The position numbers were made by a program, and so were the translations under genes. The notes under the pieces were generated by a model that ran no database searches, was not told the DNA's origin, and saw only the letters and a program-made list of their open reading frames with translations. A DNA stretch of 64,000 nt from Candidatus Omnitrophota bacterium. GTDB taxonomy: Bacteria > Omnitrophota > Gorgyraeia > Gygaellales > Profunditerraquicolaceae. This document shows, piece after piece, positions 1 through 37,135 of this stretch. Location: positions 14,955 to 78,954 of the forward strand of contig JACQXK010000038.1 in assembly GCA_016208765.1 (NCBI GenBank), given 5' to 3'. How positions within the stretch are numbered: the first letter of the stretch is position 1; every line of letters begins with the position of its first letter.

Positions 1-3000
1 CATTTTTACATTATTCTCCACCTCAAGCTGGGAGAGTTGTTTATATACATCAGGGATCAGGATTGTTTCGTATTGATCAATAATACCTGTGTAATAGTTA
101 ACTAAAAACTGATTATGAGCCTGTTCTGCCTGCGTGCGTAATGCCTTATACTGATTTACCTCGGACTGATAAGTAGCAATTTGTGCTAAGAGCGCCGGCC
201 TCCATGAATTTCTGTCATCTATTTCTTTTTGCAGATCAACCATGGTTTTGTCCAGATTCTGGTCTAAATCAGCAAGGCTTACTGTCCTTTTTCCGCCCAT
301 TTCAATTTCTATCTGCCTTCTCCAAAACTCAAGGCCGTCAACTAAATCAGAATAAAATCTCAACCTATCCTCAGTAACAGCATCGGCAGCAATGGCCTGA
401 TAAATATCGCTAAACCCGCGCAGCTCGCGGCGCATCTGCATCAGCTTAAACACCTCATCCCAATACATATTAGTTAATCTTGTCAGATGATCTGCTTTTG
501 CATTTGGATCCCTTCTTGCCGCATCTTCAAACGGCTTATCTCCCTCTAAGACAGGAAGCATTTCTCCTTCTTTTACCCCAAAAGGCTGGGTGGCAAGCCT
601 GCTGAAATCATTTTCCACCACAGCTTCATTGCTTAAATAATCCTGGTCTTTGGCGAATTCTATAATACCGGCTCCCAAAGGACTGGCTTTTTCATCATAA
701 TACCAGCGCAGCGCTGTTCCTGTGGTAAGCTCAATCTTTAAACCGTTATCAAATCTGATTTCTTCCGGCTCGCCGACAATTTCAATATTAACCAATTCTT
801 TTTTATCATAAATAAACTGTGTGGGAATTCTTGGGCTGGTGCTGTAAACTATAGCTATAGGAACATTGATCTCTTTCTCAGCAATAACCAAAACTTTTTC
901 TCCGTCTATCTCAACATACCTTGTTCCGGCGGAAAACACAATTTCCCTTCTTCCTGACTTAAACTTAAATTCCTTACCGGCAACCTTAACCTGCAAGCCC
1001 TGATCCCCTGTCCTGATATCAACATTATCCCCGTCAAAAAGCACCGCGAATTTCTGCTTGCCGGTTTCTCCCATTTCCATCGCCCAGCGTATCAATGCCA
1101 AGTTAAGTGACGGCATCTTCACATTACCTGCATAAGGATCAAGCGGCAGGCCCTTGGCATCATAAACAACAGGAGGAATATCTTGTTCCCTTCTTACCTC
1201 GTAAACTTCTCCGGTGACCGGATTGACTTCCGCGCCAAACTTGCCTTCCTGTATGGAGTTAACGTAGTTACGCGCATAATTAAGCCTTAATATGGAAGGC
1301 AGGACAATTGCCTCACCGTCGTGCATATACCAGCCCACATCCTGAAGGAATTTCCTGGTTTCCTCTTCAAACATCAGGGTTTCGCTAATGATCTCATATT
1401 CCCTGGAGGAAAGATTGTGTTTAACAATATACTGATACTTGCCCTGACGGATGGCGAAATAAACGTCATCTGCGTTTTTATTAAAAAATGCCTGGCGATA
1501 CGCCAAAAGCTGCTGCGTCCCCAGGAAAACAATGGCTTTATAGTCCTTGCGTTCAAAAGGAGATTTTAAATGAAGCAGCCTGGATATTACATTGGTTACC
1601 TTTTCCCACGGGAAATCCACTTTTACAGGCGTAACTGTTTCTTCTTCTGAACCCTTGATTACCCTGCCTGTTTTAGGATCATAGCGCATATTCAGCAGTG
1701 CTTTTGGCCAGGCAGCGCTTAAAATACCCGCATTAAATTCCCTGCCGTCTAAATACATGATCCCGCCGCGCTCTTCAAGCTTTTCCATTTTTGGCGCTGA
1801 ATAAAGATCAATTATTGCATCTGCCGCAGCCAAAGTCCCGATAATGCTGATTCCATTCTTGCTTAACCCATAAACATTATTTAAAAGTGAAGGTATTGCC
1901 CCGTATTTACCGCCCAATTGCAGGCCTATGCCAAGGTTACAATCATCGCCAAAAAGCGGGAAGGAGCCAAAGTTAAAGGAAAACAGCGAATTAAATAATC
2001 CGCCCGGGCCGATCTTTATGATCGGAGCCAGATTTATAAGATCTTCTCTTTCTTTCTCAGTCATGGCCAATCTTTCCTGGATTTCTTTCACCCACGATTG
2101 AGCGCCATAAAGCGACCTGACCATATCAAATACCGCATATTCAGCCTGCTTTAAACGGTAGGTCTCCTCGCTAAAGCTAAAATTCTTAAGCATTGAATCT
2201 AAATTCCCTGCATTGATCTTCGCCCCGGAACAATGCGGGTCAAAAATGTTTGCGCCAGACTGCGCAAGCAAATTCCAAAGGCTTGAAACTAACGCTCTGC
2301 CTCTTGAGGTGCTCCAGCCAAAATATGTAGAAACATCCGGCTCAGTAGCATACTCCAACATACCATTTACTGCAGCCCTGTTTTGTGAATCAAGCAAGCG
2401 GCGGGAAAGTTTTACTCTGCCTGTTTTAGCTGCTGCCAATGCCGCAAAACTTGTCCATTCAAAAGTTACTACCTGTTTTTGATCTAACCTTGCCCTGCCA
2501 AAAGGAAGTCCTTCAACCTTAATTTTTTCCCCTTGTTTCCTATAGTCAACTTTAATTACCTGCCCCTCAACAAAATCCAGCATCTGTTCTTGAGCAGGCC
2601 CGGCAATACCCGCAAGTATCGCCCATGAATTAAGATCGTTGGCATAATCCGTGTCCCAAGTGTTAGTGTCAATACGATAGCCAACTTTGAAATAACCTTC
2701 CTGTGTAATATAAGCCGCAGTCAAGTAATCTTGCAGGCTGTTGCGCACAAGCTTATAATCAACATCGCCGGTTAAAGCATATAATTGATTAAATGCCGCA
2801 TAAGAGGAAATTTGATGCTCGGTAGAAACCACATTATAAAGATCAAGATAATCTTCTTTATTATTGGTGAATCTGAACATCGTCATTCCATTTGCGCTTG
2901 TTAATAAATTCTTCTGCATAAACCTTGCGATATTTTCTGCCACATGGCGGTATGTGCCGTCTCCGCTTGTTCTTTCATAATTACACAAAGCAATGATCAT

Positions 3001-21000: not shown

Positions 21001-24000
21001 AAATTTATTTGCTATATTGGCATACTGTATTGCCCTAGCTTTGTTATCCACTCCGCCGGCAGCAAGATAACGCGAGACTAACATACAGGCAAGATCTGGG
21101 AATATATTGGTTGGGCCAAATTGCTCTGCTTTAGCAAGGTAAGCACTTCTTGTAACCGGATCAACTGTGCGTTTTGCCATTTCTGTGTAATACATCTGCA
21201 TTACATGAAATCCAGATAAGCTTTTTCCATTAGCCGCGTTAAACTCAGAGGTAGTCAAATGCAATAATTTTCCATCTTTATATACCACAATTCTCACAGT
21301 ACCCTTGTTACCCGGAAGCCCGTCGTACGCTTCAGGCCTCGTGATTAATTCTCGCACATCAACAATTCTACCCTTACTATCTACTGTAGTTTCTCTATGA
21401 GTTAAATCCACTGGTATCAATTTACCGTCTTTATTTCTAAACAATCCCGCCACATGCGGCTCTTCCAGGCCATCTATAATCCCCGAGGTAACCCTGCCTT
21501 TAAGCCCGGTTAACTCAGCCAATTGATAAAAAAGAGTAGTTGCAGCAACACAATTGACTTTTCCAGTACTTGGATCTTTGAGCTCTTTTGTTAAAGCAGT
21601 GTTAAGCAAAATAAATGCTTTTATAAAAGCGACCTTGTCTTCTTCTGTTTTCTTTAAACCTCTTAGAACACCATCAAGATCTTGCCAGCTTGCTTTAGCG
21701 CCATTCGTATCCAACCATTTCAACGTCAACATAACTAATCTATCAGCGCCTTCTTCTTTAGGGATCGGCCTCCCTCTATTTGCCTTTATAAAATTCCTTA
21801 GCCACTGATCAAGATTCTGTTCCTTTCCTAAAGCACCTAAAGCAGCTAACGGATCAAAAGCCCCCTGCTCAAATTCAGGCATGACTAATTGGCCGTCTCT
21901 AACTTTAAAAACTGCTCCACCTTGGCTAATCGCTCCACTTGATATTTGACCATTGGAATCAAAGGAAACTTTACTAGAACCATCAAAAACTAAATCATTA
22001 CTTCCAACTACCTTGCCATCTTTATCAAGAATTGCCTGATATTTCAAATTACCCTTAAAGCCATTACTAACAATTTCATAATTTCTTAAGTCTTGAGATA
22101 TTGATCCGCTAAAATTATAATTAAGACGAGTTAAGAAATTAGAGGAGGCTCCAGAGACCTTGCCATCAACACCTAAACTTAAAGTATTCAACCCCCTGTT
22201 TGCTGCAACAGGCTTTTCTACTTTGTCTTCACCCACACCAGTTTCCTGCTGACCACCAGTTGTTTGAGCATAAAGAGCCTGTTTTCCATTAGCTAAGGTC
22301 ACGCTTACCTGCTTAGTGCCATCTCCTTCAACTCCAGTAACCGCTCTCCATTTACCAGGTTCAGTCATGAATCTGGCTGATGTATCTATTCCTTTAATAT
22401 TACCTGCTGCATCCCAACTTACTCTCTTGGCAAATTCACCTAAAGCTCTTTTCTCATAAACATCAGTAAATAATGCTGTGTATTTCTTACCATCTAATGG
22501 CTGCCAGTAACCTGCATGTCCGCCTTTTATCTGCCCCTTTGCATCAAAAGATACTTGTTCTCCTTTTGTTCCAGTAAAGGTTAGACCGCCGTCGGCAGCA
22601 GCATAAGAAACAGCATCTTTATCTCTAAATTGTCTAACAAGATTTTTATCTCCTTTATACCCTTGATTAACTACTGTATAATTCCTTAAATCTTGGCTGA
22701 TAGAACCACCAAAGTTATAGCTTAATCCTGCGATATAGTTTGAAGATACACCGGATAGATTACCATCAACACCTAAATGCATTGTCTGCGCATGGCGGGC
22801 TGTAGCAGTAGCAGAACTCTCTTTATCTTGAGGAGAAGCGTTGGTTTCCTGGCCCTGAGATCTTTCGCCAAACCAGGCCTGTTTTCCATTAGCTAAGGTC
22901 ACGCTTACCTGCTTAGTGCCATCTCCTTCAACTCCAGTAACCGCTCTCCATTTACCAGGTTCAGTCATGAATCTGGCTGATGTATCTATTCCTTTAATCT
23001 TACCATCTAATGGCTGCCAGTAACCGCCAAGCTTGGTTTCAAGGGTACCATCTGCATTAAAAACAGCTTTATCTCCTGCCCTCACAAAAGCTAAGCCACC
23101 TTTTGCCAAAGAATCATTATTTCTGCTCAGCTGAACTGTCAAAGATGCATCCCCAGAAAAAGTTGAATGCAAAGTTGAATTTCTGAAATCTCCAGACAAA
23201 TTCATAGAGGCAGAATTAAGCTGAGACACAGAAATGTCTGCTATCTGCACACCAGAAGATCGAAGAACGCCAGAACGTTTGGATAATGTTAGCTCCCTAT
23301 GGCTATAACTTACCTTATTATTATCATTACCTGATTCGTCTTTCCTGAGTTCCGGCTGAGGTGTCTGTGCCAAAACCAATTCATTATCTCCGCCAAATTG
23401 CAAATATGGTTTCCCTGCGGCATTAACTCCAGCCACCAAATCCTGCACCGAACCACCAGGCATAGTTAAACTTCTTACTTTAAAATCAAGCCATTTCTTA
23501 CCACCATCCTCTACCCAGAAACTTACACCTTTAAGTGTTACATGCCTTAATGCCACATTATTTCTATCAGTCAAATCCACATAATAATTTCCCGACGCAT
23601 TAATTCCTCTCCACCCTGACTGGAATCCTCTATCTTTAACAAATCCATTTTCATTTAACGTAAATGTCTGCCCCTTTAAAGAACCGCCGTCTTTACGCGC
23701 GGCGGCAATAATTGTTCCTGTCCTACCTTGTTCTCCGGAAACAAACTCTCTAATATCACTTCCAATTGCATGCCTCGTATTCTCAAACATCGGCGAGAAG
23801 TTGATGTTGGTGCCGAGGTTAGCAGAATTAACTTCAAAGATTGCTGCACGCTGCAAGCCGCCAGAAGCGCCCTTTGAATGATATCTTTCTGTATCGCTCT
23901 TTGGATTAATTTCTTTGGTGGACCAAGATGTAATAGGTAAAGTTTTAATGTCGGCTTGCTTATTCTGCGCGCTGTCTTTTTCATCAAATTTAATTTCTTC

Positions 24001-26769
24001 AGGAATAACCATAGCTCCATAGCGCACTTCTTTAAAACGAAGATAATCTTTGCCCTGCTCGGTAACTAAATCTCCGACTTCAACTTCTTTCTTAACACCT
24101 GTCTGCCCATATTTATAAAAAGTAACGGTAGCCTTCTGGTTCTGCTTGGCAACACCGTTTCTTTTCCACTCACTACCTTGATAAGAATACGGAGTTCCAA
24201 CAGCAAGCTCGGTTAACCTCTGAGTACCGTCATTTGCCGAGACCAAATCCGCAAATACCATTGCACTTGCAGAACAACCGGCAGCAGGAGTTACTTTATC
24301 TTTACCAACGATAACTGCAGGATTCGCGCCTTTAACTGTATACTCAGCGCCATTCCAATTAAATTTTTCTCCTAAAATACGCGAATTAGAAAAATACGGA
24401 TTTAAATTTGCACCTTGGCCGGTAAGGCCCAAAATAATATTCCCAGTTGCCCGCATAGTGTAGCGGTCAAGAGTATGATTATTAAAAACAGACTGCACGC
24501 CATAAGCCGTGCTTGATTCGCTTCCTGTAGCAGGCTTAGGAGTTATCGTCGGCAGTGTTCCGGCGTTAATTCCCACTGCATCCACATAGCCATTTTTATC
24601 AGCGTAATAACCAATAACTCTTCCAACAGTATCCCAATCTTTTTTGTCGGCGACTCCGGAATAAGCAACTCCAGCGCCGCTTAGCGCTTTATCTAAAGCT
24701 ACCTTATTCGGCAAGCCAAACTCATTATGTCCAATATCCCATTTTGCACCAGATAACGGCGAATAAAAAGACTGCCAATAAGTTCTGTCGGCAATAGTCT
24801 GCGCGCCTTGGCCATTAAAACGCAAATCCGTCCGGCCCCCGCTATTTTCCATATTTAAACCCATCACCTGCCATGGCAAAGTGCCTCCGTCCCTAATCGG
24901 CTCAGGAAGAAAGTTTACCACCCTTTTATATTCCGGCACGGAATTTCCTTCGGGCGAATAAAATATAATCTCAGGTAAAATTTCTACTCTTTGTCCTGGC
25001 TTAAAACCAATTTGATTGAATCCCGGATTCCAACCAGCACGATTACAATAAAGAGTAAAGCCCGTGTCTCTACCATATTCATCAAGTACTCCCGAAACTT
25101 TAACCAACCCACTCTCCACAGAAAATCCATCATATTCTGAAAGCCTTACACGCGTCGGCGCAGTTACAGGCACATCACGCGGAGCGCTATCTCTATCTAA
25201 CGCATTTACTCCAGACGGATTCATTACCGCATTAGCCATAGTCCACAATGGAACAATTACCGACATCTTCCCATCTCTACCCTTATCAAAAGACTGCTCA
25301 TTTAAACTCACCCTAAAATCCAGTTCACTTCTCTGCTTGCTGATCCATACGTAACCAGTATCCTTGGCAGACCTGCTGCGGAAAGCGCTCTCAGCATGCG
25401 CCACTTGCCCATTAGCCTTTGTTTCAAAACCTTCAAATTTACCTTCCATAGGAGTGGCAAAAAACTGTCCAGTCTGCCCTTTTGCCGCCGGAACAATAGT
25501 CTTATTATTAAAACGCGCTTCCACTAATCTACTGTTGCTGTCAAAACGCTCCTGAATAGCCACAGGCTTTGCAGCAGCGGTGGTATCGCTAATAAATCCG
25601 TAAGTCGCCCTCCACTCAGCGGTCTTTGCCGGATTTGTAGAAGCCTGCGCAAAACCATAGGTGCTGCGCACGGTGTTTGCCGGCCTCTGATTAGGATCAT
25701 AAAAAGTAACGCTCATAGACATTGGCGAGCTGACTTGGCGGGTAATATTGACATTTGCATTGTTAGACCTGGCATCGTAGGCAACAAAACCTGAATTATA
25801 ATTATTTGTCGCCGGACTGCTATAACCTTGATAAGAATTGCTGAATATCTCATCTCTCTCACGCAGCCAATCTCCGGCCCCTCTTATTTCCTTAGCCTCT
25901 TTTTCAGATAAAATTATATCCGTGCCTTGCGGCTGGGCAATTAAAGCATAGCCGCTAAATTTTTCTGCGAATTTTTCGGTCGGCAGAAATTCTTCTTTAT
26001 GCTCGTCACTATAATAGATCTTATCCGGGGTAATCCGGGTTACTAAAACGAAATGGTCTTTTTTAAAATGCGCAATGAATGGCGCTGCATTTGCTGCATT
26101 AGCCGAATTGGTTGAACTAAAATCTAACTTAACCGGATAAAGCTTGTCCCCAAAAAATTCTGCTGATTTTGAAAGGGCAAATAAAGAATTCTTAATTTCA
26201 GTTGGATTTCCTTCAGGCTTAACAATGTCATTTAAAATATCAAAGGTTAAAGCCATAACCGCCACATCCTGCTCCTGAGCGCTTATTCCTTTGTAAACTA
26301 AATAATCAAATAATGCCTTTGCGCCGCAAGGCTTGCCAATTAACCAATTGTAAATTTCTTCAATGCGGCCCTTAGATAATTTTAATGGCTTGGCTAATTC
26401 AATACTCTGTGTGGGAGAAATCTTAATGCTTGTAACCGGCTTACCTGAAAGGTCAATAAGGACATTTTTAACTGCTGTGGGGACATTCAAATCTTGAGGA
26501 TTCCTGACAATTGAGGCAGGGCCCATATTAACTGAAGGAGCATAAGGTTTGTTCCAGAGTACACGCCAATCATATTCAATGGCGTGGGCAACCTGCTCCG
26601 GTAGAAAAACCGCTACCAGGATAAAAGCAACAACTCTGATCCAGCCTTTGAAATTTGAATGAAATGGTGTTTGTTCGGTTTGGATTGTAGGATTTGTAGA
26701 TTGTTCAGATGAGATTACAGTTTGTGGGACAGGCCTGCGCAATACTATATAAAAAATAATTGAGAGCAT
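1..26769 (-). CDS. Giant multidomain membrane-anchored/secreted protein A, partial (>8,900 codons in window; 3' end beyond window position 1)
   Basis: I translated minus frame 0 by hand at 1-60, 3900-3960, 6361-6480, 9400-9780, 12750-12780, 15018-15060, 17281-17340, 25920-26400 and 26581-26769. All are open and in the same frame. The ORF track shows no stop-delimited minus-strand ORF in this frame, consistent with an ORF running off the window edge. ATG at 26769 is preceded by AAGGGGAGG (SD) 4 nt upstream. N-terminus MLSIIFYIVLRRP...GWIRVVAFILVAVFLPEQVAHA is a signal anchor. Plus-strand ORFs here are antisense shadows. Confidence 0.8.
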   Translation of the reverse strand, partial: MLSIIFYIVLRRPVPQTVISSEQSTNPTIQTEQTPFHSNFKGWIRVVAFILVAVFLPEQVAHAIEYDWRVLWNKPYAPSVNMGPASIVRNPQDLNVPTAVKNVLIDLSGKPVTSIKISPTQSIELAKPLKLSKGRIEEIYNWLIGKPCGAKALFDYLVYKGISAQEQDVAVMALTFDILNDIVKPEGNPTEIKNSLFALSKSAEFFGDKLYPVKLDFSSTNSANAANAAPFIAHFKKDHFVLVTRITPDKIYYSDEHKEEFLPTEKFAEKFSGYALIAQPQGTDIILSEKEAKEIRGAGDWLRERDEIFSNSYQGYSSPATNNYNSGFVAYDARSNNANVNITRQVSSPMSMSVTFYDPNQRPANTVRSTYGFAQASTNPAKTAEWRATYGFISDTTAAAKPVAIQERFDSNSRLVEARFNNKTIVPAAKGQTGQFFATPMEGKFEGFETKANGQVAHAESAFRSRSAKDTGYVWISKQRSELDFRVSLNEQSFDKGRDGKMSVIVPLWTMANAVMNPSGVNALDRDSAPRDVPVTAPTRVRLSEYDGFSVESGLVKVSGVLDEYGRDTGFTLYCNRAGWNPGFNQIGFKPGQRVEILPEIIFYSPEGNSVPEYKRVVNFLPEPIRDGGTLPWQVMGLNMENSGGRTDLRFNGQGAQTIADRTYWQSFYSPLSGAKWDIGHNEFGLPNKVALDKALSGAGVAYSGVADKKDWDTVGRVIGYYADKNGYVDAVGINAGTLPTITPKPATGSESSTAYGVQSVFNNHTLDRYTMRATGNIILGLTGQGANLNPYFSNSRILGEKFNWNGAEYTVKGANPAVIVGKDKVTPAAGCSASAMVFADLVSANDGTQRLTELAVGTPYSYQGSEWKRNGVAKQNQKATVTFYKYGQTGVKKEVEVGDLVTEQGKDYLRFKEVRYGAMVIPEEIKFDEKDSAQNKQADIKTLPITSWSTKEINPKSDTERYHSKGASGGLQRAAIFEVNSANLGTNINFSPMFENTRHAIGSDIREFVSGEQGRTGTIIAAARKDGGSLKGQTFTLNENGFVKDRGFQSGWRGINASGNYYVDLTDRNNVALRHVTLKGVSFWVEDGGKKWLDFKVRSLTMPGGSVQDLVAGVNAAGKPYLQFGGDNELVLAQTPQPELRKDESGNDNNKVSYSHRELTLSKRSGVLRSSGVQIADISVSQLNSASMNLSGDFRNSTLHSTFSGDASLTVQLSRNNDSLAKGGLAFVRAGDKAVFNADGTLETKLGGYWQPLDGKIKGIDTSARFMTEPGKWRAVTGVEGDGTKQVSVTLANGKQAWFGERSQGQETNASPQDKESSATATARHAQTMHLGVDGNLSGVSSNYIAGLSYNFGGSISQDLRNYTVVNQGYKGDKNLVRQFRDKDAVSYAAADGGLTFTGTKGEQVSFDAKGQIKGGHAGYWQPLDGKKYTALFTDVYEKRALGEFAKRVSWDAAGNIKGIDTSARFMTEPGKWRAVTGVEGDGTKQVSVTLANGKQALYAQTTGGQQETGVGEDKVEKPVAANRGLNTLSLGVDGKVSGASSNFLTRLNYNFSGSISQDLRNYEIVSNGFKGNLKYQAILDKDGKVVGSNDLVFDGSSKVSFDSNGQISSGAISQGGAVFKVRDGQLVMPEFEQGAFDPLAALGALGKEQNLDQWLRNFIKANRGRPIPKEEGADRLVMLTLKWLDTNGAKASWQDLDGVLRGLKKTEEDKVAFIKAFILLNTALTKELKDPSTGKVNCVAATTLFYQLAELTGLKGRVTSGIIDGLEEPHVAGLFRNKDGKLIPVDLTHRETTVDSKGRIVDVRELITRPEAYDGLPGNKGTVRIVVYKDGKLLHLTTSEFNAANGKSLSGFHVMQMYYTEMAKRTVDPVTRSAYLAKAEQFGPTNIFPDLACMLVSRYLAAGGVDNKARAIQYANIANKFNIQLGAGLTSIMNIVVKAQAAGDLDKVIVTQDGNQLSISYQEGKTRKKTEVGAPLLTDYMPYGLEVLPGTGLRQVKTPQGEMAYMFNGARVYVKGETEIDGVRYLCLSGAQYSNKLFYVSLANASGTQLSEDVAFASGEKGRWVRSLNRGVFEQYIQIGDTRYTLQPWLQQLGFAYDCYRSADGKMKWLERKTRKEANSGTLLASTEALSVQTRGKVLREMLSNNPRAAENMVALFNTTDSWRGQMAFWRSDSERSRKLLVINPQTGIMEYISFSDIDVSSGEVRVFNNYALRTSYAQAQRVFMGAFAERALKHGYIPIAVVDDAVTTRSAAIYGGAAAAYVAGTVLSATGVGAPTGVSLIMIAGAAAYSIAGAEILKYGLTGETLTWSERVTAGVLGAAPAALGKAAQFARASASVVSGAGVGAGAMDFTEAAVNVVQASRLARVAGVATQIIAASGRTLESGATFAYASYALGNAGSIASSGRPLTFGEGAVSLASGYIPSAVGQLRGVGALGKGMSYLIGAQKASRAAHIGYSLGWAGAGGLINSAVNGWSGRNFLEGAAVGFVARNIAYLSYVSSARLFGLGLNEAEKSATFQWIWKTPLRGNLIYSAGWSAAGAGIYPFFTKEGHTWSNALKGAGLGLVARWGGVALLKPSFATGNIFLKVSEKTNEISKLRLFGNGAVRLLTHPLTVSTALAKYDLAGVKYDLDANGRVVAESVKGGNLDFLGPVLRGVLVNSGRNFIGVFSGQRSYSKTNAVIDQLKMQERKQVTDYLRDVQQNSSFGWMRAAVGAYLYSFADTFAQAASGSYSISAAAHPLDTLHGLISFADHAKQMLIDQTGEVPTATGAEWGMFLGGLIGATKGYKTMATRISESEYFNIPKGLLKGQTYKLIGTDTGLRITNYKFTQRLGAVFVKTHSDAANLVVWNTVFSTFVGNAMSGGQFSLEDVSRQVTAMAYSMDTVAKGAFGLSAVFNSLGLVSGELGKTRAGKFWNSLGEKEAKYNSRRGWAIGTSVGMIVGGYGLYRWGMSNSPKDKPSESWNYVADAGLVLAGIGGLLMMKSLSGVLSSRAFVARKERLPGTTESALERSLLGRTEAKYFGTVANGLEGWKALGHSVAYYAPYISLGVASGIYANYKLTGELFGDGWKTDVIAGAAFGVGLRNVFPILRLAGQAGLLAGNLASGAALFYGTKKMVDGKLEEWAWKLDPQKRKPDFAEATRPYLFEEQKVFMIEEDEYGQKKLDTTKEKVLVERDGKKLEVYPYKYKEAGKLNHWRYALFLGANMLGATKIGLIARETYIKGPLEPQIGFGRGAAKGIRENVINGGEKMWDWVFSSRRKGGVPPGEGHASSAVGGVNAGATTFWKSVSSPQFVIPVATALTGLATYGFSGTKYGENIGKAMMILPALYFVSKVGKFKLSDIHLFGVEHPIISSTLMIGAGYGLEHWGAVEGTFGLKGATIGENGADLGLIVGRIGTGMKWLGTVNLVASVASRIPGLRDSFLDKTSRQVAGLSLAGTKGIAWDFALRGTMINLFTVIAPLQGVVESLSAFTKTYISPAAYGDWEKSLLNFTYGAFWITPEESKQGKGPASRDKYAVLLGAFDKAGSFESKLRVAGRIAERAYFAGLFGSYAEGDNIQDNKKKIGDIKVDSFDQAPKTLSGFFKKVDRTNLIFSATLAGLQPFAESAFGAIKWRNFGYKFQAIGKGVEETLGAGMLLKSSPRESSLGAGKIIGQRLYSMVVTGTVEETVTEQFIQAALNFLPFGAFLSPSKASQLSEILQEILSPNGMAGRVNVFSRGQAIDYLKKKIYNAENAKNVLNKRLTEGSNARGSENRLRNGRPIALTTEMVQTRQAALNDMITQYRAALNNVRGLALFTSTPEEVSAAMRPSLQRKAEILIARGQAAVDERWGVGMWQAAMRGKRGRVNLMPANSIRNEETNAVTPAQVDKETGDFRLDAAMNFNYKVSSGGRLSVTTNVVGEYNVGGGAHELHHSVIDYVQHDTRRIIDNNTRLQYEGFLNQFQNRLGLDNEEFQRVDLGITEWGLNEALVQYYSMVDLLHFLDQDKNLHLAKFCPGSYNIQDLIQRTINQGGNSLLSLSERMLEMENTGEAMDYIIDFVQCTNGNKIKFVTPTAQTNGQQPEEDDDTSSPIIMNLKRKPVYGLPPEVESAKDKKIIASSSVLAALSDSKENASSDVPLSATDKVGIPEAQKVVSAAIEASRGRSPPEQAITVPVVTPVVIPSVTPASAQRATFSSVGRMKSYLAKLFIPLALAVIIFGGVKLSPVTGTLANNVSGATPKAVSRVVQVSRPSNFILNDENQQIERVVKASPAVVKATQFTKQKDNAPLVPLIRSLQEVKDSSLINLLKRAAFFVQPPENNQAVDKKIIVSSAVLTALTGKKEVVLSAPIATPVVTSIVAAYVSPRNIINQSSSAINSNDLRKGLRWTAAGLSLTSVGVLGSMFAIDHAPSIEILSYVQGGLLTTVAGLGTAVRTIDLVSGNNSSKGAWLSQLAITLGTPLDVFFGGAVSQVGNAMQIAGASYSVVKEKGLARWANVIGIGFDAFDIVQGHTLERPAKSGIDSGGVISETVDEMISRDAVGKIKFNPVKFLIPVVVAALISGGVKFGLVTGALADNVKSASPKAVSEVVKVGNPSNLVVRGENNHIVRTIKVDHAVVKAVPVAVDIQKKASASSAIVSSPTAQATRFTLNKRTQSVTYPGRLGLVHQDVVGYLQSAGKAPEQHLTIVDLGIGHSGAPTVFEFARVLSDAGYRNVDLIGVDNTVKHLVSARDRLEREEVPVGIRMDFGINDNFLLFPDVRSFAGRGIRALRDGVDLILTANVLGHYWEPEQQKTAIWAMTQALKPEGALVVAGGNKFEVKLINKFLYSYGIDYYSKAGELLSARRFEKINPLYSSRASELEYKQHFSFRDPAVRRTYFAGEFSSKPVASLAWQTLAQQSRQPVVVDVSASSVLVENEEVKAIASLAQAMVAAKRQGNAAASPVVVENGQRFIELAPEHRTEIAKFAAIKEQLVEARANIGKAMAEGASVDKIRELAGVLDSVSNEVMKWINEAIAKKDADPVLAIIGLSFKTSGDNYGREGGRQFSAFDSYSAAFGLQSYVELFNGSSENEKKEVLEMIFESASDLEGRMSLDLSLFNNNNPKLPLRIVAFTDGYLAREVIDVDAVLDQASSPVQSPAENQLPANLPVAPARVPVPTSIGAVVGGLGTFAEMLGSSPALPLVIKPATEGLVVSSSAIMSTVAGTQLFGQAGGVNVATGISPMSGRGNRQAGRKLGALVGSSAVGAIVGARGAAESRSNETGLPVAANVGAVARTVGKSRGSSSAIIGLRREDDKLPLIGESASSSIHTRNQILVEKYGARGPPADYPLNQTVSSAIPVNYGAVVRIGSSSVSLSSIYQLLKYYLKEIISAFISNEPHFTPSVAGMVDEAIVVYAGRQKASLQGLTSFGACVTTKTTASSGLSSIFVADFSLSGILWTLTCVSFSAAAFYGFIRKNMRFAALSSSIVIFNFAFNFANLNWFFHNWFYNFLDVSVYMGFALGLVELSRYIKENNSELENGLAAKPITQISVIGANIAAAVFFSLLSAQEILTKYESTRNFIHAFYWKNLTYDPYDILAYAAGTLLLVLYNRWTAEPKESMGKRDVGLQGLLRNQKPVRRNRSRSTSSPITNLTKPYSIPSVAGTIVKAIVVYAGRQKASLQGLTSFGACVTTKSASNAVTKILNYSVAVEPQSNLTTYFKLTGGAKCVDLTIQKLILTTWWNSLKTQLSLPRVETTVICGFSLLTTARVMSIAVMAGQIPGKYSQIMTVIWSLNDSSLPAAARSRSTRSTQKGRSNRVAGHVSPVTSHLSPVSGKAASSALNNDLGAVARTEGSSSAVIDLSDTLFKESDGVVELFNVFVDEFEEVVKLARETGAKITKKFLNELFERMFDARFINATKKQRNNLRNQAIEAVTAGHASSALTNNVGAVVVASSSVDEVTRELPVSEESKEMIKVFLSEFTVTLDKFKDALSKYKKNNKKGLTALEQLIIGFSKSIEGGRKRTKTDAQDIFGMLCQTITKISEYDLNAAMFVINGALYRLKKVSEPEKRKEAFAWIESEIGKMEFVLASINAGANFVKAHRDNNELLIDIKGTFLLNLETLRGRNLRKAEEVVREFMKDYIMVITRDQNVDPEQTTFRERGILFIEMFTKRFADNEAFIIDLMKKAVTASSAVGAVVAINTTQASSAVVEMGWSELFRAFFKTLNHFMGNSIGPIVGNIKLMQDPAYASYLASPDVIKSEIIDGCQSMLKFIEEVLSMEQPSVAEIASNLDPDPVLFVESIKNITGAPASVKLTDNTWDEIKKEILLPRLNFLKNQVKYILNFVDTIDGDNEARNTVGTAGETMRYAVAEFENKYRDMVEIPGLVLTSIFSAHMLLKEYSGSYGISGERDIKIVEDSVLFKILLDIGYERSYIHAVLAKRGLKVFFAHERDFGKKESNGDHPIGAVVYRYDENNNNIVVFCFGVINSRRNEYLSPILLLKFLSLILVDWKQEKEIAKYHGTDFNPTVSIVVDPRIGDGAFFKAFNFSKNGNVFSKPFDAIVKSSSPVGALMVTKTGTSSPVGAVVGAIASQEAAKSSSALFNNFGAGKYLSDVANKGLIRAGPVGSLVTICSSSSVRNLVVKTVKIASVATIIILFGLLVNIKGFLPLLPVVLSAASFGLLYASFTARKNIRLNPQTQITPAAALKKAMPAALYVAAGTLLIIGGLKITPLIISAGLLAKLLPSVVIMLGISMLLTASFLTKHGVEYSGVKFLKLAFGMLLTRLIALRLAHQAVHTQKTLGERHSFRDLFSIRHFTLKTRAAYIGLSLAVVLTSGIASVKLIIIAAVLGYTMPYLWNVLRNFFFDRALYNAERTGLIFKHHDNQLEAAQTEFINNLEKKLAAEYANLSWPAKAVLHIAFFFVRLNVAFPVLSATTMFFFGRLQLILLSSLLGHIFAPVILGDAVINSLPAVYGIKFLEPYLSALHLSYHTGDIFGTLAIVFGLKVINLGHIRNRIIEFWLGRSINVMSYYQALNSDKEQVREKAKADLEYIISRGAMGNSLFEKVVMNGLGKKVARISSRQWLYLKADIVALAVILAVVTPIVLMLKFPVLLPLGLLGLGLYVAQSIRKKAFFADPYKNLWVSLSGEFFSSMLYMWTIGAEINAVIASGGFLAEHPVLKHFGGTELDIIGRSLEGENGAISWGSHALNSVNQFVGADLTEFAYSLVSGNKEPGIFATAYNFYPLYQNGQILKNKDGHILPGGLNLDDFHALYVGRKPLSKELDRNETAKLLESFKGRFNFDRIFSHSRRANIIRVIDRVYRVRINSADDLRRLLRSANLDEIISGFGMVGKDSKNLLNIRHAFSVRAVKAQEGISERARRLMLMSVEYKFKALAQADDVQKERFMILARIVDLDLQDEVLRENNSAKEKSEDNQLSRRIALLELEINNEKGAVKLEGLRKQKHALELFLAQRKVYRLERATTEEFMAELSAQGFGGVSGQEAEMFRETALQQAYDELAELKDKKPAVPVTEPANSIDIRDQIRQQEEQGTKAQDRQIVAAPKAPAQVVINKGVKVPGQVPVETTMSRAPPAKQANNTFGQKAKAVVLASALFLNSLGATEAFAAAVPAAVPAPAPVARRPDPVAVPRQAPAAPADIIYTIKSGDTVSKIAIRYGIKWQDLYDYNKGVIGANPNRIFPERQIKIPVSARTAAPAQTAQPQPADQAVKSGPTTGAKASPEPAVTPKPKPAPYKPLDYSGIRDLGSVPQALAALGRRIPRELDLTKKADDLLIPLQTISTDLEALKARVHLLKSPKSWDKKYNGFWDYIKAFRAFEAAKEQVLEQIRGLETTIARKASYIRVEKGEFELKKKTAKYEKYLKISRYDAQRKAFLELMPVSFADDPAEFGKTYLYDFAVLIDALTFAGENKKAAELLRLFTRFFGDGKNGFYNAYILSDLRHIENKSAGPLAHMIIALCNYERTSGDGTYRHVAENIARFMQKNLLTSANGMTMFRFTNNKEDYLDLYNVVSTEHQISSYAAFNQLYALTGDVDYKLVRNSLQDYLTAAYITQEGYFKVGYRIDTNTWDTDYANDLNSWAILAGIAGPAQEQMLDFVEGQVIKVDYRKQGEKIKVEGLPFGRARLDQKQVVTFEWTSFAALAAAKTGRVKLSRRLLDSQNRAAVNGMLEYATEPDVSTYFGWSTSRGRALVSSLWNLLAQSGANIFDPHCSGAKINAGNLDSMLKNFSFSEETYRLKQAEYAVFDMVRSLYGAQSWVKEIQERLAMTEKEREDLINLAPIIKIGPGGLFNSLFSFNFGSFPLFGDDCNLGIGLQLGGKYGAIPSLLNNVYGLSKNGISIIGTLAAADAIIDLYSAPKMEKLEERGGIMYLDGREFNAGILSAAWPKALLNMRYDPKTGRVIKGSEEETVTPVKVDFPWEKVTNVISRLLHLKSPFERKDYKAIVFLGTQQLLAYRQAFFNKNADDVYFAIRQGKYQYIVKHNLSSREYEIISETLMFEEETRKFLQDVGWYMHDGEAIVLPSILRLNYARNYVNSIQEGKFGAEVNPVTGEVYEVRREQDIPPVVYDAKGLPLDPYAGNVKMPSLNLALIRWAMEMGETGKQKFAVLFDGDNVDIRTGDQGLQVKVAGKEFKFKSGRREIVFSAGTRYVEIDGEKVLVIAEKEINVPIAIVYSTSPRIPTQFIYDKKELVNIEIVGEPEEIRFDNGLKIELTTGTALRWYYDEKASPLGAGIIEFAKDQDYLSNEAVVENDFSRLATQPFGVKEGEMLPVLEGDKPFEDAARRDPNAKADHLTRLTNMYWDEVFKLMQMRRELRGFSDIYQAIAADAVTEDRLRFYSDLVDGLEFWRRQIEIEMGGKRTVSLADLDQNLDKTMVDLQKEIDDRNSWRPALLAQIATYQSEVNQYKALRTQAEQAHNQFLVNYYTGIIDQYETILIPDVYKQLSQLEVENNVKM
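3820..3960 (-). other. LysM domain in giant protein A, flanked by Pro/Ala-rich linkers
   Basis: Verified translation APAAPADIIYTIKSGDTVSKIAIRYGIKWQDLYDYNKGVIGANPNRIFPERQIKIP. Canonical LysM pattern YxVkxGDTlxxIAxxYgv...L...N.l....i.pGq.l.iP. Confidence 0.75.
5400..6480 (-). other. Polytopic membrane segment (8 or more predicted hydrophobic helices) embedded in giant protein A
   Basis: Translation of 6361-6480 verified (AAYIGLSLAVVLTSGIASVKLIIIAAVL). The adjacent stretch continues with several about 20-aa hydrophobic runs (approximate read). Confidence 0.4.
9403..9451. repeat. Heptanucleotide array (GGAGACA GGAGACA GGTGACT GGTGACT GGTGACA CGTGACC GGCGACA) inside gene A
   Basis: Seven imperfect 7-nt units. 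Verified to encode ...VAGHVSPVTSHLSPVSGK in frame. Confidence 0.85.
9826..9930. repeat. Internal direct repeat copy 1 in gene A (80-nt perfect identity with 10596-10675)
   Basis: ttagttgtcacgcaggcgccgaaggaggtcagtccttggagggaggccttctggcggcctgcgtaaacaacaatagcct is identical at both sites. It contains an imperfect internal palindrome (gcaggcgccgaagg...ccttctggcggcctgc). In frame; encodes VVYAGRQKASLQGLTSFGACVTTK. Confidence 0.9.
10596..10700. repeat. Internal direct repeat copy 2 in gene A
   Basis: See copy 1 at 9826-9930; 770 nt apart. Confidence 0.9.
12400..12900 (-). other. Class I SAM-dependent methyltransferase-like motif set within giant protein A
   Basis: Verified translation PEQHLTIVDLGIGHSGAPT (motif I hh(D/E)hGxGxG), followed by DLIGVD (post-I acidic), VDLILTANVLGHY (motif II) and KPEGALVVAG (motif III). 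Confidence 0.45.
15031..15045 (-). other. HExxH zinc-metallopeptidase-type motif (GGGAHELHHSVIDY) in giant protein A
   Basis: Verified codon by codon. The motif alone is not proof of a peptidase. Confidence 0.35.
22277..22398. repeat. 122-nt perfect direct repeat copy 1 in gene A (tandem ~200-aa domain repeats)
   Basis: gcctgttttccattagctaaggtcacgcttacctgcttagtgccatctcc...cctttaat is identical at 22877-22998. The surrounding about 600-nt units (21900-23100) are diverged copies of the same unit; copy 2 lacks an about 85-nt segment. Confidence 0.9.
22877..22998. repeat. 122-nt perfect direct repeat copy 2 in gene A
   Basis: See 22277-22398. Confidence 0.9.
25920..26340 (-). other. Peptidase C39-like (papain-fold Cys/His) domain within giant protein A
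   Basis: Hand-translated: IGKPCGAKALFDYLVYKGISAQEQDVAVMALTFDIL...NAAPFIAHFKKDHFVLVTRITPDKIYYSDEHKEEFLPTEKFAEKFSGYALIA. The Cys, His and Asp/Glu spacing and the HFVL...D..E..F..W/F.G motif match the C39 bacteriocin-processing peptidase pattern. Confidence 0.5.
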
Positions 26770-26885
26770 GCGCCTCCCCTTACCCCAAATTTCTTTAATC
26801 ATCGCGTTTATCTTCGCGCTCGTCATAATTTAATTAAAGAGAATTAAAATCTGTTTGTGAAACTGTTTAATAAGCAATTAAATAA

Positions 26886-27070
26886 AAAACCGGATTGTCA
26901 AAACCTTGTCTCGGTTCGGCAACCCGGCCATCCTTTGATAATACTCAATTTATCTTTTAGGACCCGTGGCTTTGCGCCCCCCGATTACTCGTCCCGTTCA
27001 ATAATCTTTCTAACGGGATCCCGCTTTTTTTGCGGGAGGGTTTGCCCTTCTCGTTCCAACCTCTAATTGC
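26886..27070 (-). promoter_or_regulatory. Conserved 5' leader L1 of giant gene A (structured RNA candidate ending in hairpin + U-tract)
   Basis: Homologous to 35088-35296 and partly to 45303-45489. Shared blocks: GCGGGAGGGTTT, CCCGTGGCTTTG(C/T)GCCCC, CGG(C/T)AACCCGGC, a hairpin, then AAAAATAAAA(A)CCG (U-tract on the sense strand). Confidence 0.5.
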
Positions 27071-27076: not shown

Positions 27077-27105
27077 AGTATATATGATGCTTACAAGTGT
27101 GTCAA
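27077..27105 (-). promoter_or_regulatory. Sigma70-like promoter of giant gene A (TTGACA, 17 nt spacer, TATACT)
   Basis: Sense strand reads TTGACAcacttgtaagcatcataTATACT. An AT-rich UP-like region lies upstream. Confidence 0.5.
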
Positions 27106-35628: not shown

Positions 35629-36135
35629 TTATTTAGCTCTAAAACTGGTGATTATTTTATTAAAGATAGGCTCATATTTCTTATCCTTACCTACCTCATA
35701 AGCATAGGTTAAGACATAAAAATACTTTCCCTTGCGGAAAACAACGCTGGTCATTCTTAAAGTAAATTCTTTTATCTTGGTGACAAATGAAAATTTCTTA
35801 CCTGGCAAAAAACCTGCGAATGCGCTTCCTTCCTGTTGATCATACGCTCCCGGCAAATTGCGTAAAAGTTCTTCACGATTTAACTCGTAAAATGTCCCCA
35901 AAGAAACCTGTTCCGGCAATTCTGTTACTACCACGTTAATATTTTCCGGATACACATCCCCTTTACCTTCAAGCGGCGCCTTGGCAATCAAAGCCACCTT
36001 ATCCATTCCTTCTTTACTCCAGGAATTTGGCAGTAGTAAAGAAAATTTATATTCTTCATTACTATATTTCTGCCAGAATAAATTACACCCTGCCAGAAAA
36101 AATGTGATCAAAAATATAATAAATAACTTACGCAT
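35629..36135 (-). CDS. Lipoprotein, unknown function (about 168 aa; lipobox FFLAGC)
   Basis: Track ORF 35629..36174. The internal ATG at 36135 gives MRKLFIIFLITFFLAGC. The N-terminal extension in the track overlaps a degenerate repeat copy. Confidence 0.7.
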   Translation of the reverse strand: MRKLFIIFLITFFLAGCNLFWQKYSNEEYKFSLLLPNSWSKEGMDKVALIAKAPLEGKGDVYPENINVVVTELPEQVSLGTFYELNREELLRNLPGAYDQQEGSAFAGFLPGKKFSFVTKIKEFTLRMTSVVFRKGKYFYVLTYAYEVGKDKKYEPIFNKIITSFRAK

Positions 36136-36143
36136 AGTATTGC

Positions 36144-36180: not shown

Positions 36181-36186
36181 ATTTGT

Positions 36187-37074: not shown

Positions 37075-37135
37075 ATCCTTCTTTCTATTGATCCTTAAGT
37101 CGGCCGAAGGCCTCCTTCAGATGACGGTAGCGCAA

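Follow-up and report, generated by a model that had tools for sequence, protein, structure and literature searches.

Omnitrophota are tiny bacteria, probably predatory, in which giant genes fill a large share of very small genomes. Giants of the C39 type have been described as carrying an N-terminal C39 domain near the signal peptide and many transmembrane (TM) helices (West-Roberts 2023, bioRxiv 10.1101/2023.11.21.568195), and the PF03412 architecture cluster comprises 24 proteins (Nielsen & Lui 2026, bioRxiv 10.64898/2026.06.07.730766). The published upstream locus of giants contains homologues of gspD/E/F, rcpC, a Rotamase_2 PPIase and class III signal peptides, with PilZ and sugar-uptake genes lying downstream; a SecA_DEAD/SecA preprotein-binding domain is present in 'most' giants, and the 'Archaeovorin' subtype has recognizable GT, methyltransferase, GH, NUDIX, and HEAT domains. 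Velamenicoccus archaeovorus LiM encodes a 39,678-aa giant with an adjacent, expressed Tad locus (Seymour et al. 2023, PMC10066038), and a role in attachment and cell-wall attack has been proposed for this protein (PMC10066038).

The window analyzed here, meaning the whole stretch of 64,000 nucleotides from a Candidatus Omnitrophota contig, holds a giant open reading frame, G1, and the following large neighbors:

1..26769, minus strand: G1, giant ORF of more than 8,923 aa, with ATG 26769 as the most plausible start; exits the window at position 1
27546..35045, minus strand: G2, a 2,499-aa secreted protein adjoining G1
35629..53509, minus strand: Tad/type-II-secretion-like pilus locus
54216..63998, minus strand: G3, a third giant ORF of more than 3,260 aa, exiting at the right window edge

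G1 is a real single gene for a giant membrane protein. Its frame runs through 8,943 codons with no stop from 26829 to the window edge at position 1, whereas each of the remaining five frames accumulates 292 to 855 stops over the same 26.8 kb, which excludes chance as its origin. Codon-usage log-odds, trained on the neighboring Tad genes, rank this frame best in 17 of 17 consecutive 500-codon segments, so that a chance ORF is ruled out by stop counts and codon usage together, and recoded stop codons were rejected because the frame is already open with the standard bacterial code and recoding explains nothing. The six-frame scan thus bears out the preliminary description, which had reported a single open frame of more than 26.7 kb; the size, which it had called far above that of normal bacterial genes, is not without precedent, as the gene belongs to the already described giant genes of Omnitrophota. 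In-frame start candidates are ATG 26826, ATG 26802, ATG 26769, and TTG 26742. A Shine-Dalgarno-like run, GGGGAGG, precedes ATG 26769, and this start is plausible because the N termini of the homologues align from about aa 30 to 42 (residue numbers of G1 are counted from the codon at 26829).

Homology searches returned 25 homologues (E values of 1e-51 to 4e-288), nearly all from Candidatus Omnitrophica/Omnitrophota and mostly named 'C39 domain-containing, partial', with N-terminal identities of 50 to 61%; beyond the last aligned point, homologous fragments go on for a minimum of 460 and up to about 2,850 aa. On the basis of these alignments, G1 is assigned to the described C39-type giants of Omnitrophota, and its host lineage probably has no close representative in public genomes.

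The neighborhood is of the kind published for giants. The pilus locus encodes a PPIase (Rotamase_2), RcpC, a secretin with TonB_C, a TadZ-TadA fusion ATPase, and DUF192, and further about 10 Flp-type pilin or pseudopilin genes, a TadG-like gene, two T2SSF genes, and a PsbP-like lipoprotein. The TadZ-TadA ATPase has its best relatives in Omnitrophota MAGs (52 to 54%), and the same T2SSF pair stands upstream of giants in six other loci (L084, L085, L087, L091, L092, and L093). G2, for which a Pfam search returned no domain, shows weak collinear similarity to large genes ahead of C39 giants in L086 and L088; proteins identical to G2 and to the ATPase occur in the independent Logan assemblies SRR12113402 and SRR12113406, on contigs of 4 to 8 kb; a search for a longer public contig that would reach the stop codon of G1 turned up these short ones only. 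G3 contains HEAT repeats and two LysM domains.

Within G1, the following elements were located, listed from the N terminus:

26578..26658, minus strand (aa 58-84): N-terminal signal anchor (FKGWIRVVAFILVAVFLPEQVAHA), from hydropathy, near-invariant in 26 homologues
25927..26382, minus strand: peptidase C39 domain, Pfam PF03412 (E = 1.2e-8), with Cys168 (KPCGAKAL) and His259 (DHFVLV)
21880..23202, minus strand (aa 1210-1650): tandem repeats of about 200 aa, repeat identity 44 to 47%
16030..20532, minus strand (aa ~2100-3600): Gly/Ala-rich zone with scattered hydrophobic segments, from composition and hydropathy
7105..16959, minus strand (aa 3291-6575): zone of 14 copies of a pentapeptide, from a motif count
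14626..15216, minus strand: zincin-like segment, HELHH at aa 3929 (15031-15045) with EWGLNEALVQYYSM about 60 aa downstream
12340..12792, minus strand: class-I methyltransferase-like segment, IVDLGIGHSG ... LIGVD ... DLILTANVL, by inspection
5515..6975, minus strand (aa 6619-7105): polytopic membrane block of about 10 hydrophobic helices, from hydropathy
3793..3933, minus strand (aa 7633-7679): LysM domain, Pfam PF01476 (E = 5.7e-10, 39.4 bits versus 20.9), with PDB LysM matches
2221..3228, minus strand (aa 7868-8203): (alpha/alpha)6-barrel, six-hairpin-glycosidase-like domain, from AF2 and Foldseek
460..2217, minus strand (aa 8205-8790): conserved module common to P0026-P0033

The preliminary description had taken this ORF for a membrane-anchored mega-protein of mosaic content. 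That reading holds, and nearly every module that it listed, including the signal anchor, the C39-like peptidase, the tandem repeats, the Gly/Ala-rich region, the polytopic block, and the Pro/Ala linker with LysM, was recovered at the place it had given. C39 and LysM are the sole above-threshold Pfam domains in the 8.9 kaa of G1 within the window; NCBIfam and PDB sequence searches of G1 returned nothing beyond these two, and over 90% of the sequence is free of detectable domains. The C39 domain also matches the LahT protease 6mpz weakly; of 26 sequences compared, 92% or more retain its catalytic pair Cys168 (KPCG[AS]KAL) and His259 (DH[FY][VI]L). The repeat of about 200 aa is present at least four times in P0001. 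The polytopic block is homologous to aa 1108-1622 of P0031 (26% identity) and is included in the roughly 19 to 20 distinct hydrophobic segments counted in G1 by a crude Kyte-Doolittle scan, a count to be read with the published warning that topology predictions for Omnitrophota giant proteins are unreliable. The LysM domain is preceded by a signal-peptide-like segment at 4024-4104 and flanked by Pro/Ala linkers (aa 7603-7740; Pro 11.7%, Ala 16%), the exact boundaries of which were set by eye.

Two of the enzyme-like elements proposed earlier do not go beyond the level of motifs. HExxH occurs once in G1, as HELHH, against 0.06 occurrences expected by chance, and P0002, the sole homologue aligned across the motif (the alignment of P0003 stays N-terminal), keeps HELVH ... 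EWGPNEMLTQYFSM, including the downstream NEAL-type Glu; the motif is thus present and kept in one relative, whereas its reading as a peptidase gained neither an HMM match in Pfam nor a PDB sequence match. Likewise, the methyltransferase-like segment has its motif I-like IVDLGIGHSG at aa 4684, while the Pfam Methyltransf_25/CheR match (E = 0.03) lies below threshold and a PDB sequence search gave no match.

The C-terminal region, which had been described as alpha-helical and glycosidase-like, is supported as such at the level of the fold. The AF2 model of the barrel has a pLDDT of 86.9 and a pTM of 0.89, and Foldseek returned 291 PDB fold matches at E <= 1e-3, among them sugar 2-epimerases, GH76, and dextran dextrinase with TM scores of 0.55 to 0.68; the best 50 of the 291 we take to be (alpha/alpha)6 folds throughout. 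When aa 6600-8943 were searched by word index, no match reached E <= 1e-5. The orphan status that this would imply is refuted by an exhaustive HMMER search, which found 151 relatives of the barrel, and the empty word-index result is therefore a limit of sensitivity. Residues E8004, H8005, D8065, and E8124 are conserved in the alignment of this family. The barrel region of G1 itself matches no GH Pfam model, and some of its homologues match Glyco_hydro_76 weakly. The adjoining module at aa 8205-8790 gave an AF2 pLDDT of only 59.6 and no PDB fold match (best Foldseek TM score below 0.1, which is meaningless).

Taken together, we consider it likely that G1, with its 8.9 kaa or more, forms the 5' portion of a giant envelope-protein gene of Omnitrophota, riboswitch-gated and with a membrane-threaded product, for which we infer membrane topology, enzymatic activity, and a role in adhesion or predation along these lines: (i) the conserved signal anchor would insert the protein and so bring the C39 cysteine peptidase, which appears to be active, to the membrane; (ii) about 20 more hydrophobic segments, the 10-helix block among them, would thread the chain to and fro, so that some modules, such as the methyltransferase-like segment, would stay cytoplasmic; (iii) LysM and the (alpha/alpha)6 barrel would be turned towards the cell wall and could there bind, and probably act on, glycan, the linkage of the barrel to LysM pointing to a cell-wall glycan substrate, either of the cell's own sacculus or of that of a host or prey cell; and (iv) the pentapeptide, recurrent in linker-like regions, may mark places at which the chain is processed or modified.

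The 5' leader of G1 and two further leaders in the window contain elements of expression control:

27077..27105, minus strand: sigma-70-like promoter TTGACA-17-TATACT, 11/12 matches, by consensus only, just upstream of the aptamer
26915..27056, minus strand: c-di-GMP-I (GEMM-I) aptamer in the G1 5' leader, RF01051 at 46.6 bits versus 35 (E = 1.7e-6)
26881..26929, minus strand: G1 expression platform, a terminator-like hairpin with U-run, GCCGGGUUGCC (dG -21 kcal/mol, z -3.3)
26770..26880, minus strand: conserved leader that holds TTGGGGTAAGGGGA and a short ORF resembling a leader peptide, from alignment with L084, L085, and L087
35121..35276, minus strand: second c-di-GMP-I aptamer, in the G2 leader, RF01051 at 35.6 bits versus 35; terminator hairpin at about 35095-35140
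45300..45475, minus strand: third c-di-GMP-I aptamer (45349-45475; RF01051 at 40.2 bits) with terminator (dG -26.2, z -3.85)

The match in the G1 leader covers the full RF01051 model, whereas the aptamer before G2 clears the gathering score by only 0.6 bits; the latter and the G1 aptamer share 91% identity across 68 nt. The third aptamer precedes the first Flp pilin gene (ATG 45290). Terminator hairpins behind all three aptamers reuse the aptamer 3' strand (z -3.3 to -3.85), which in G1 is the 5' arm of the hairpin, and the leader-peptide-like ORF is here in frame with G1. Promoter-like sites in the region upstream of G1 are no more numerous than in its shuffles. A riboswitch leader before the giant gene is common to G1 and most of the relatives checked: RF03167 was found in 7 of 10 homologous loci, 160 to 270 nt upstream of the giant start (61 to 67 bits versus 59), and the same terminator platform appeared in all four relatives' leaders that were folded. 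The aptamers of the relatives fit this 'GGC' variant model best, and their ligand may differ from c-di-GMP.

For G1, we infer c-di-GMP as the ligand and an ON-switch polarity. Transcription from the promoter-like site would yield an aptamer of the c-di-GMP-I family, the 3' strand of which can instead pair into an intrinsic terminator; binding of the ligand would prevent termination and allow transcription of the gene of 27+ kb, with G1 as its own transcription unit. As the same type of switch precedes G1, G2, and the Flp pilin operon, we propose their joint activation, in which pilus and giants would be switched on together.

The pentapeptide [A/S/G]-S-S-[A/P]-[V/I/L] occurs 14 times in G1 against 0.42 copies expected and 9 times in G3 against 0.09, and it is absent from 5.9 kaa of neighboring non-giant proteins and nearly so from the other frames. 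The order of its residues is specific, ranking first among 60 class permutations, a control that rules out a compositional origin, and an origin at the DNA level is ruled out as well, since the copies use different codons, which points to selection at the level of the peptide. It is also the top over-represented word in the other giants P0002, P0006, P0023, P0030, and P0031, and it may mark processing or modification sites in giants. Neither the pentapeptide nor the riboswitch leader is mentioned in the giant-gene papers (West-Roberts 2023; Seymour 2023; Nielsen & Lui 2026).

These observations can also be explained by G1 being a polyprotein or fused operon, the modules of which are separated after translation at the pentapeptide sites, possibly by the N-terminal C39 domain, or are, in a variant of this reading, partly made by internal initiation. 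Its enrichment in G1 and G3, absence from the non-giant neighbors, fixed order, peptide-level selection, and recurrence as top word in five other giants would all fit such a role, as would the layout of G3, where one site lies directly behind LysM and two bracket a methyltransferase-like piece of 210 aa, a domain-sized unit; signal-peptide-like segments come after some of the sites, in relatives, the corresponding region is split among large ORFs that abut or overlap, and published work suspects cleavage of giants at points that have not been located. On the other hand, many homologous giants have 0 or 1 copies, and P0002 aa 4284, the sole site that falls where the sequences can be aligned, has no conserved counterpart in G1. 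C39 peptidases normally cleave after Gly-Gly. This specificity differs from Ser-Ser-Ala/Pro, and no double-glycine substrate was found for G1; the pentapeptide could equally be a sequon for glycosylation or another modification, or a binding motif. We regard the polyprotein or fused-operon reading as unlikely for G1, and likewise its broader form, in which Omnitrophota giants in general are polyproteins while pilus, G2, and giant are gated by cyclic-dinucleotide riboswitches. If true, the pentapeptide, maintained by selection in linker regions of several giants that otherwise evolve fast, would be the site of processing or modification that has long been sought, possibly cut by the C39 peptidase of the same protein, and the whole attack apparatus would stand under one riboswitch family.

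Quite improbable, in our view, is a purely structural role of G1 as surface coat or adhesin, in which C39, the barrel, and the motif-level enzymes would be inactive relics. A coat or adhesin role has been proposed in the literature, and the large domain-free share of G1, its repeats, its coiled-coil-like stretches, and its Gly/Ala-rich regions are in keeping with it; however, the Cys/His pair of C39 and the Glu/His/Asp/Glu set of the barrel are conserved across distant relatives, which argues for retained activity. An assembly artefact, that is, a chimeric join or a repeat collapse that hides shorter true genes, is extremely unlikely: the perfect internal repeats that the preliminary description had taken as a possible sign of it come down to one 128-nt pair of 99% identity (22277-22404 and 22877-23004, spaced exactly 600 nt apart) among otherwise diverged repeats of about 200 aa, which is weak ground for suspicion, and the public assemblies with identical neighboring proteins are the short contigs mentioned above, but a chimera would have held a stop-free frame of uniform codon usage only by luck, a change in copy number with a period of 600 nt would leave the frame intact and could not create the ORF, a TRF scan found just two trivial tandem arrays, and the order of distant modules, from pentapeptide zone through TM block to barrel, is reproduced in P0030 and P0031.

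This locus adds a divergent member to the giant genes of Omnitrophota. The cyclic-dinucleotide riboswitch leader, conserved here and in 7 of 10 loci, gives a new handle on the regulation of giant genes, which it makes testable in vitro with no need to culture the organism; the recurrent pentapeptide gives proteomics a set of candidate sites at which giants may be processed or modified; and an uncharacterized, LysM-linked family of (alpha/alpha)6 barrels with about 150 detectable relatives has been delimited.

In comparison with the described C39-type giants, G1 shares the signal anchor followed by C39, the long domain-poor N-terminal region, and the many TM helices, as well as the PPIase, RcpC, secretin, ATPase, GspF-like, and class III signal-peptide genes upstream. 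It differs from them in that even the best-conserved 280 aa are only 50 to 61% identical and the remainder is mostly unalignable. Its length in the window, where the gene is cut, is 8.9 kaa, against cut-offs of at least 10 kaa (Nielsen & Lui) and more than 30 kaa (West-Roberts), and in the 8.9 kaa within the window, Pfam searches found neither SecA_DEAD nor a glycosyltransferase nor any other domain of the 'Archaeovorin' set, of which SecA_DEAD could lie beyond the window. As in V. archaeovorus, likewise a member of the Omnitrophota, a giant multi-TM ORF stands beside a Tad pilus system, whereas the giant of that organism, compared here by its published description only, is rich in recognizable enzyme domains and G1 is not.

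With the C39 domains of bacteriocin-exporting ABC transporters (PCAT, LahT), that of G1 has the Cys/His pair and the Pfam match in common. Unlike them, it is not fused to an ABC transporter, no ABC domain being found in G1 or elsewhere in the window, and it sits behind the signal anchor, a position that probably places it on the outer face of the membrane. The barrel shares its predicted fold and conserved acidic residues with the six-hairpin glycosidase/sugar-epimerase superfamily (GH76, cellobiose 2-epimerase, and GH15-like proteins), from which it differs in being just 8 to 16% identical; it matches epimerases as well as hydrolases. Finally, the aptamers of this locus pass the Rfam thresholds and are followed by a terminator-type platform, as in the c-di-GMP-I riboswitches of other bacteria (RF01051/RF03167), and the genes downstream are here, as elsewhere, surface, adhesion, and pilus genes, c-di-GMP-I riboswitches being known to control pili and large adhesins in other bacteria (for example, those of Bacillus thuringiensis, PMC4759541); unlike in the known cases, a gene of more than 27 kb lies downstream, and the switch is used three times in one locus.

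All large ORFs of the window (G+C, 42%) lie on the minus strand. The frame of the giant gene G1 runs from 26829 to position 1 (-), reaching the window edge after 8,943 codons and no stop, while the other five frames hold 292 to 855 stops over the same 26.8 kb. Codon-usage log-odds, trained on the neighbouring Tad genes, were highest in the G1 frame for 17 of 17 consecutive 500-codon segments. For these two reasons, G1 is a genuine coding sequence along the whole ORF, with a chance opening excluded and no obvious chimera, and the single uninterrupted ORF of more than 26.7 kb claimed in the preliminary description is confirmed. The genes are ordered along the minus strand as follows.

Gene order along the minus strand
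54216-63998 (-): G3, a third giant (HEAT, LysM) that runs off the right edge after more than 3,260 aa
tRNA-Glu, between G3 and the next gene
Rotamase_2 PPIase
RcpC
49971-51647 (-): secretin (RcpA/CpaC-like) with a TonB_C tail
TadZ-TadA ATPase, fused
DUF192
about 10 genes with Flp-type class III signal peptides, based on G/xS..E[YF] motifs
TadG-like protein
two T2SSF proteins
PsbP-like lipoprotein
27546-35045 (-): G2, a secreted protein of 2,499 aa
G1, last in order

G2, which lacks any Pfam domain, is weakly similar and collinear (24-36% identity) to the large genes directly preceding homologous C39 giants in two relatives (loci L086, 1-5999, and L088, 1-6004), which suggests that a G2-like gene and a C39 giant form a conserved pair. 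The C-terminal TonB_C of the secretin is an unusual fusion, and the Tad locus includes a 584-aa protein (40330-42084, -) that combines a pilin-like, class III signal peptide with a body very rich in Cys and for which no family match was found. G3 holds two LysM domains, HEAT repeats, an HExxH (VEHELNHAEYF) and a weak methyltransferase-like piece, as well as an 80-nt duplication (57687-57766 and 58929-59008, -) encoding IIELPLDSSL...TVASSA[IV]; its residues 1801-2035 are similar to a portion of the gene that follows the C39 giant in L088. A REP-like palindromic element (GTCATTCCCGCGAAAGCGGGAATCC...), from which spurious small ORFs such as '...IPAFAGMT...' arise, has four intergenic copies: 27209-27279, 27297-27417 and 35389-35509, just upstream of the leaders of G1 (two) and G2 (one), and 42106-42176, between the Cys-rich gene and a gene for a 274-aa pseudopilin, with about 3 kb separating it from the nearest aptamer. 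In three relatives (L084, 4730-5422; L085, 3488-4165; L092, 1340-1894), the T2SSF genes are separated from the riboswitch-led giant by a Y1_Tnp (IS200-like transposase) gene.

Three full-length c-di-GMP-I riboswitch aptamers, each scoring over the gathering threshold, were found on the coding strand in an Rfam scan.

Aptamers of the window
27056-26915 (-): G1 leader, 46.6 bits
35276-35121 (-): G2 leader, 35.6 bits
45475-45349 (-): ahead of the first Flp pilin gene, 40.2 bits

A promoter-like TTGACA-17-TATACT stands just upstream of the G1 aptamer, and downstream of every aptamer comes a stable hairpin with a U-run (dG -21 to -26 kcal/mol, z -3.3 to -3.85). In the G1 and G2 leaders, the 3' strand of the aptamer, GCCGGGUUGCC, doubles as the 5' arm of this hairpin, so that the terminator and the ligand-stabilised aptamer would exclude each other, at least in these two cases, which predicts ON switches; in the pilin riboswitch, the hairpin is largely separate, with overlap confined to the aptamer 3' tail. 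The generality of this arrangement was tested on ten loci of homologous C39 giants, seven of which have, 160-270 nt upstream of the giant start, an aptamer belonging to the same clan, with the 'GGC' variant RF03167 as the best-fitting model (61-67 bits versus 59).

Aptamers of the relatives
L084: 5747-5838
L085: 5731-5828
L087: 5744-5832
L089: 5832-5913
L091: 2229-2329
L092: 2250-2340
L093: 2250-2333

The hairpin design was the same in all four leaders folded (L084, L085, L087 and L089), and in two of the three aptamer-less loci a large gene abuts the giant, which therefore has no leader. The stretch from terminator to start (26770-26880, -) is conserved relative to the segments upstream of position 6001 in L084, L085 and L087 and contains TTGGGGTAAGGGGA and a short leader ORF (in L084, MKRMIKNLEDLGARGSIYFLLNLIR, stop), which in the window happens to be in frame with, and fused to, G1, making the true start codon uncertain. 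The in-frame candidates are ATG 26826, ATG 26802, ATG 26769 and TTG 26742; since GGGGAGG precedes ATG 26769 and the N termini of homologues begin aligning at about residue 30-42 (counted from 26829), the start probably lies near 26769, as proposed earlier, although the exact codon is not fixed. The riboswitch is not mentioned in the Omnitrophota papers of West-Roberts et al. (2023, bioRxiv 10.1101/2023.11.21.568195), who describe only downstream PilZ genes and GGDEF domains inside some giants, Nielsen & Lui (2026, bioRxiv 10.64898/2026.06.07.730766) or Seymour et al. (2023, PMC10066038), and a full-text literature search for riboswitch, Omnitrophota and di-GMP returned nothing relevant. We report the conserved leader, with its putative cyclic-dinucleotide ligand, as new and as a directly testable handle on the regulation of giant genes.

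The encoded protein was previously read as a membrane-anchored mosaic mega-protein, which proved largely right, with most of the listed modules located.

Modules of G1, numbered from the 26829 codon
aa 58-84: membrane anchor by hydropathy (FKGWIRVVAFILVAVFLPEQVAHA), almost invariant among 26 sequences
aa ~150-301: C39 domain (Pfam E 1e-8)
aa 1210-1650: pair of ~200-aa repeats, 44-47% identity
aa ~2100-3600: Gly/Ala-rich zone with scattered hydrophobic segments
aa 3929: HExxH, sole copy in G1 (0.06 expected)
aa ~4680-4830: methyltransferase-like pattern, IVDLGIGHSG ... LIGVD ... DLILTANVL
aa 6619-7105: polytopic block, ~10 hydrophobic helices, 26% identity to a block in giant P0031
aa 7576-7602: signal-peptide-like segment, after a coiled-coil-like stretch and before Pro/Ala linkers
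aa 7633-7679: LysM (Pfam)
aa 7868-8203: helical domain
aa 8205-8790: conserved module common to the homologues P0026-P0033

The anchor, peptidase, Gly/Ala-rich region, polytopic block and Pro/Ala linker with LysM were all recovered as described. The C39 domain is probably active, since Cys168 (KPCGAKAL) and His259 (DHFVLV) are kept in at least 92% of relatives. Other modules stood in part: (i) the tandem repeats exist as a pair, but the 'perfect' repeats reduce to a single 128-nt patch at 99% identity, its copies exactly 600 nt apart, in addition to three further, smaller internal similarities; (ii) the HExxH aligns with HELVH of the homologous giant P0002, and EWGxNExLxQYxSM about 60 aa downstream is also conserved, making the segment zincin-like at the motif level, but no HMM or PDB match backs a peptidase; (iii) the methyltransferase-like pattern is present, but with a Pfam E of just 0.03; (iv) the C-terminal 'glycosidase-like' reading holds only at the level of the fold. 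Regarding the latter, a word-index search found no relatives of the helical domain and an exhaustive HMMER scan found 151, some of which match Pfam GH76 weakly. An AlphaFold2 model (24-sequence alignment; pLDDT 86.9, pTM 0.89) resembled, at TM 0.55-0.68 among the PDB matches listed by Foldseek, sugar 2-epimerases, GH76 mannanases and a dextran dextrinase, and the other listed matches are what we take to be (alpha/alpha)6 barrels. The domain is accordingly modelled as an (alpha/alpha)6 barrel, and the family-conserved Glu8004/His8005, Asp8065 and Glu8124 are present in G1. The module at aa 8205-8790 folded poorly (pLDDT 59.6) and its predicted fold had no PDB match. The final 150 aa are coiled-coil-like and the ORF goes on beyond the window; because homologous fragments extend from at least 460 to about 2,850 aa past this point, the complete protein is probably well above 10 kaa. 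Some C39 giants end at 3.9-4.9 kaa and are overlapped by the next large ORF by 17-70 nt (L087, 17792-17808; L088, 20696-20766; L092, 16404-16426), the G1 equivalent there being either consecutive split genes or broken by frameshifts in those MAGs.

We also observed a recurrent PENTAPEPTIDE, of the pattern [A/S/G]-S-S-[A/P]-[V/I/L], new here and unexplained. It occurs 14 times in G1 (0.42 expected), always within aa 3291-6575 (window 7105-16959), just before the polytopic block, and nine times in G3 (54219-63998; 0.09 expected); G2 and 5.9 kaa of other window proteins have no copies and the other reading frames 0-1. Serine and alanine codons vary among copies, so the constraint acts on the peptide and a DNA-level constraint was rejected; a purely compositional origin was rejected because the real order ranked first among 60 orderings of the same residue classes (23 versus a median of 1 in the window giants, 34 versus 3 in five other giants). 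In several giants that look unrelated, no tetrapeptide is more over-represented than this word (SSPV, 10 copies, in P0002; SSPL, six, in P0023; also P0006, P0030 and P0031); in P0030 and P0031 it again stands ahead of the TM block and barrel. Within the collected set, proteins below 2 kaa hold 2 copies per 102 kaa versus 44 per 160 kaa in long ones, and the flanks show no conservation.

The pentapeptide may mark processing or modification sites, providing a directly testable handle on maturation. If it is a cleavage site, G1 would be a polyprotein or fused operon, a reading compatible with the main one that we consider unlikely overall. In its favour, G3 sites bracket domain-sized pieces (one directly follows LysM, two flank a 210-aa methyltransferase-like piece), the region equivalent to G1's is sometimes divided into abutting or overlapping large ORFs in relatives, and the giant-protein literature suspects cleavage at unknown points; on the other hand, the data suit a modification sequon or a motif for binding just as well, and copies are few or absent in many giants.

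In the main reading, a cyclic dinucleotide would switch on transcription of the pilin operon, G2 and G1 together; the anchor, given the basic residues before its helix, would put C39 on the membrane's outer face; the chain would alternate between compartments, with the methyltransferase-like part kept inside and the LysM-barrel module placed at the wall, where it could bind and act on wall glycan, whether its own cell's or a host's. G1 would then serve attachment or cell-wall attack, as proposed for giants in the literature. A purely structural coat whose enzyme domains are dead relics appears rather improbable, because the catalytic residues are conserved in both families (C39 Cys/His; barrel Glu/His/Asp/Glu).

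The first 4,999 aa of G1, searched against 5.8 billion proteins, gave 25 matches, almost all of 3-7.6 kaa from Candidatus Omnitrophica/Omnitrophota MAGs and mostly annotated 'cysteine peptidase family C39 domain-containing protein, partial'. Only residues ~42-320 (anchor and C39 domain) are well conserved (50-61% identity); elsewhere, identity of 25-40% is confined to islands, namely the repeats and aa 2170-2587, 2678-3167 and 3388-4068. Misassembly of shorter true genes is very unlikely, given the stop-free frame, the codon usage of all segments and the same module order in other giants. Since the best relatives of the TadZ-TadA ATPase among 185,579 species genomes are two Omnitrophota MAGs with only 52-54% identity, the window comes from a lineage of Omnitrophota that has no close public genome; the only identical copies of G2 and the ATPase are on short Logan contigs (runs SRR12113402 and SRR12113406).

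To conclude, the giant gene itself will not surprise a specialist. ORFs above 20 kb occur in most Omnitrophota classes (Seymour et al. 2023), the giants carry numerous TM helices (West-Roberts et al. 2023), their published descriptions also include a C39 domain at the N terminus close to a signal peptide and an upstream secretion locus (gspD/E/F homologues, rcpC, a Rotamase_2 PPIase and class III signal peptides), and a PF03412 architecture cluster of 24 proteins has been described, as have secretion or pilus genes flanking 13 of 14 giants (Nielsen & Lui 2026). As both its homology and its genomic context match those of the published giants, whose surroundings are the same as those of G1, this gene is a divergent new addition to the already known Omnitrophota giant genes.
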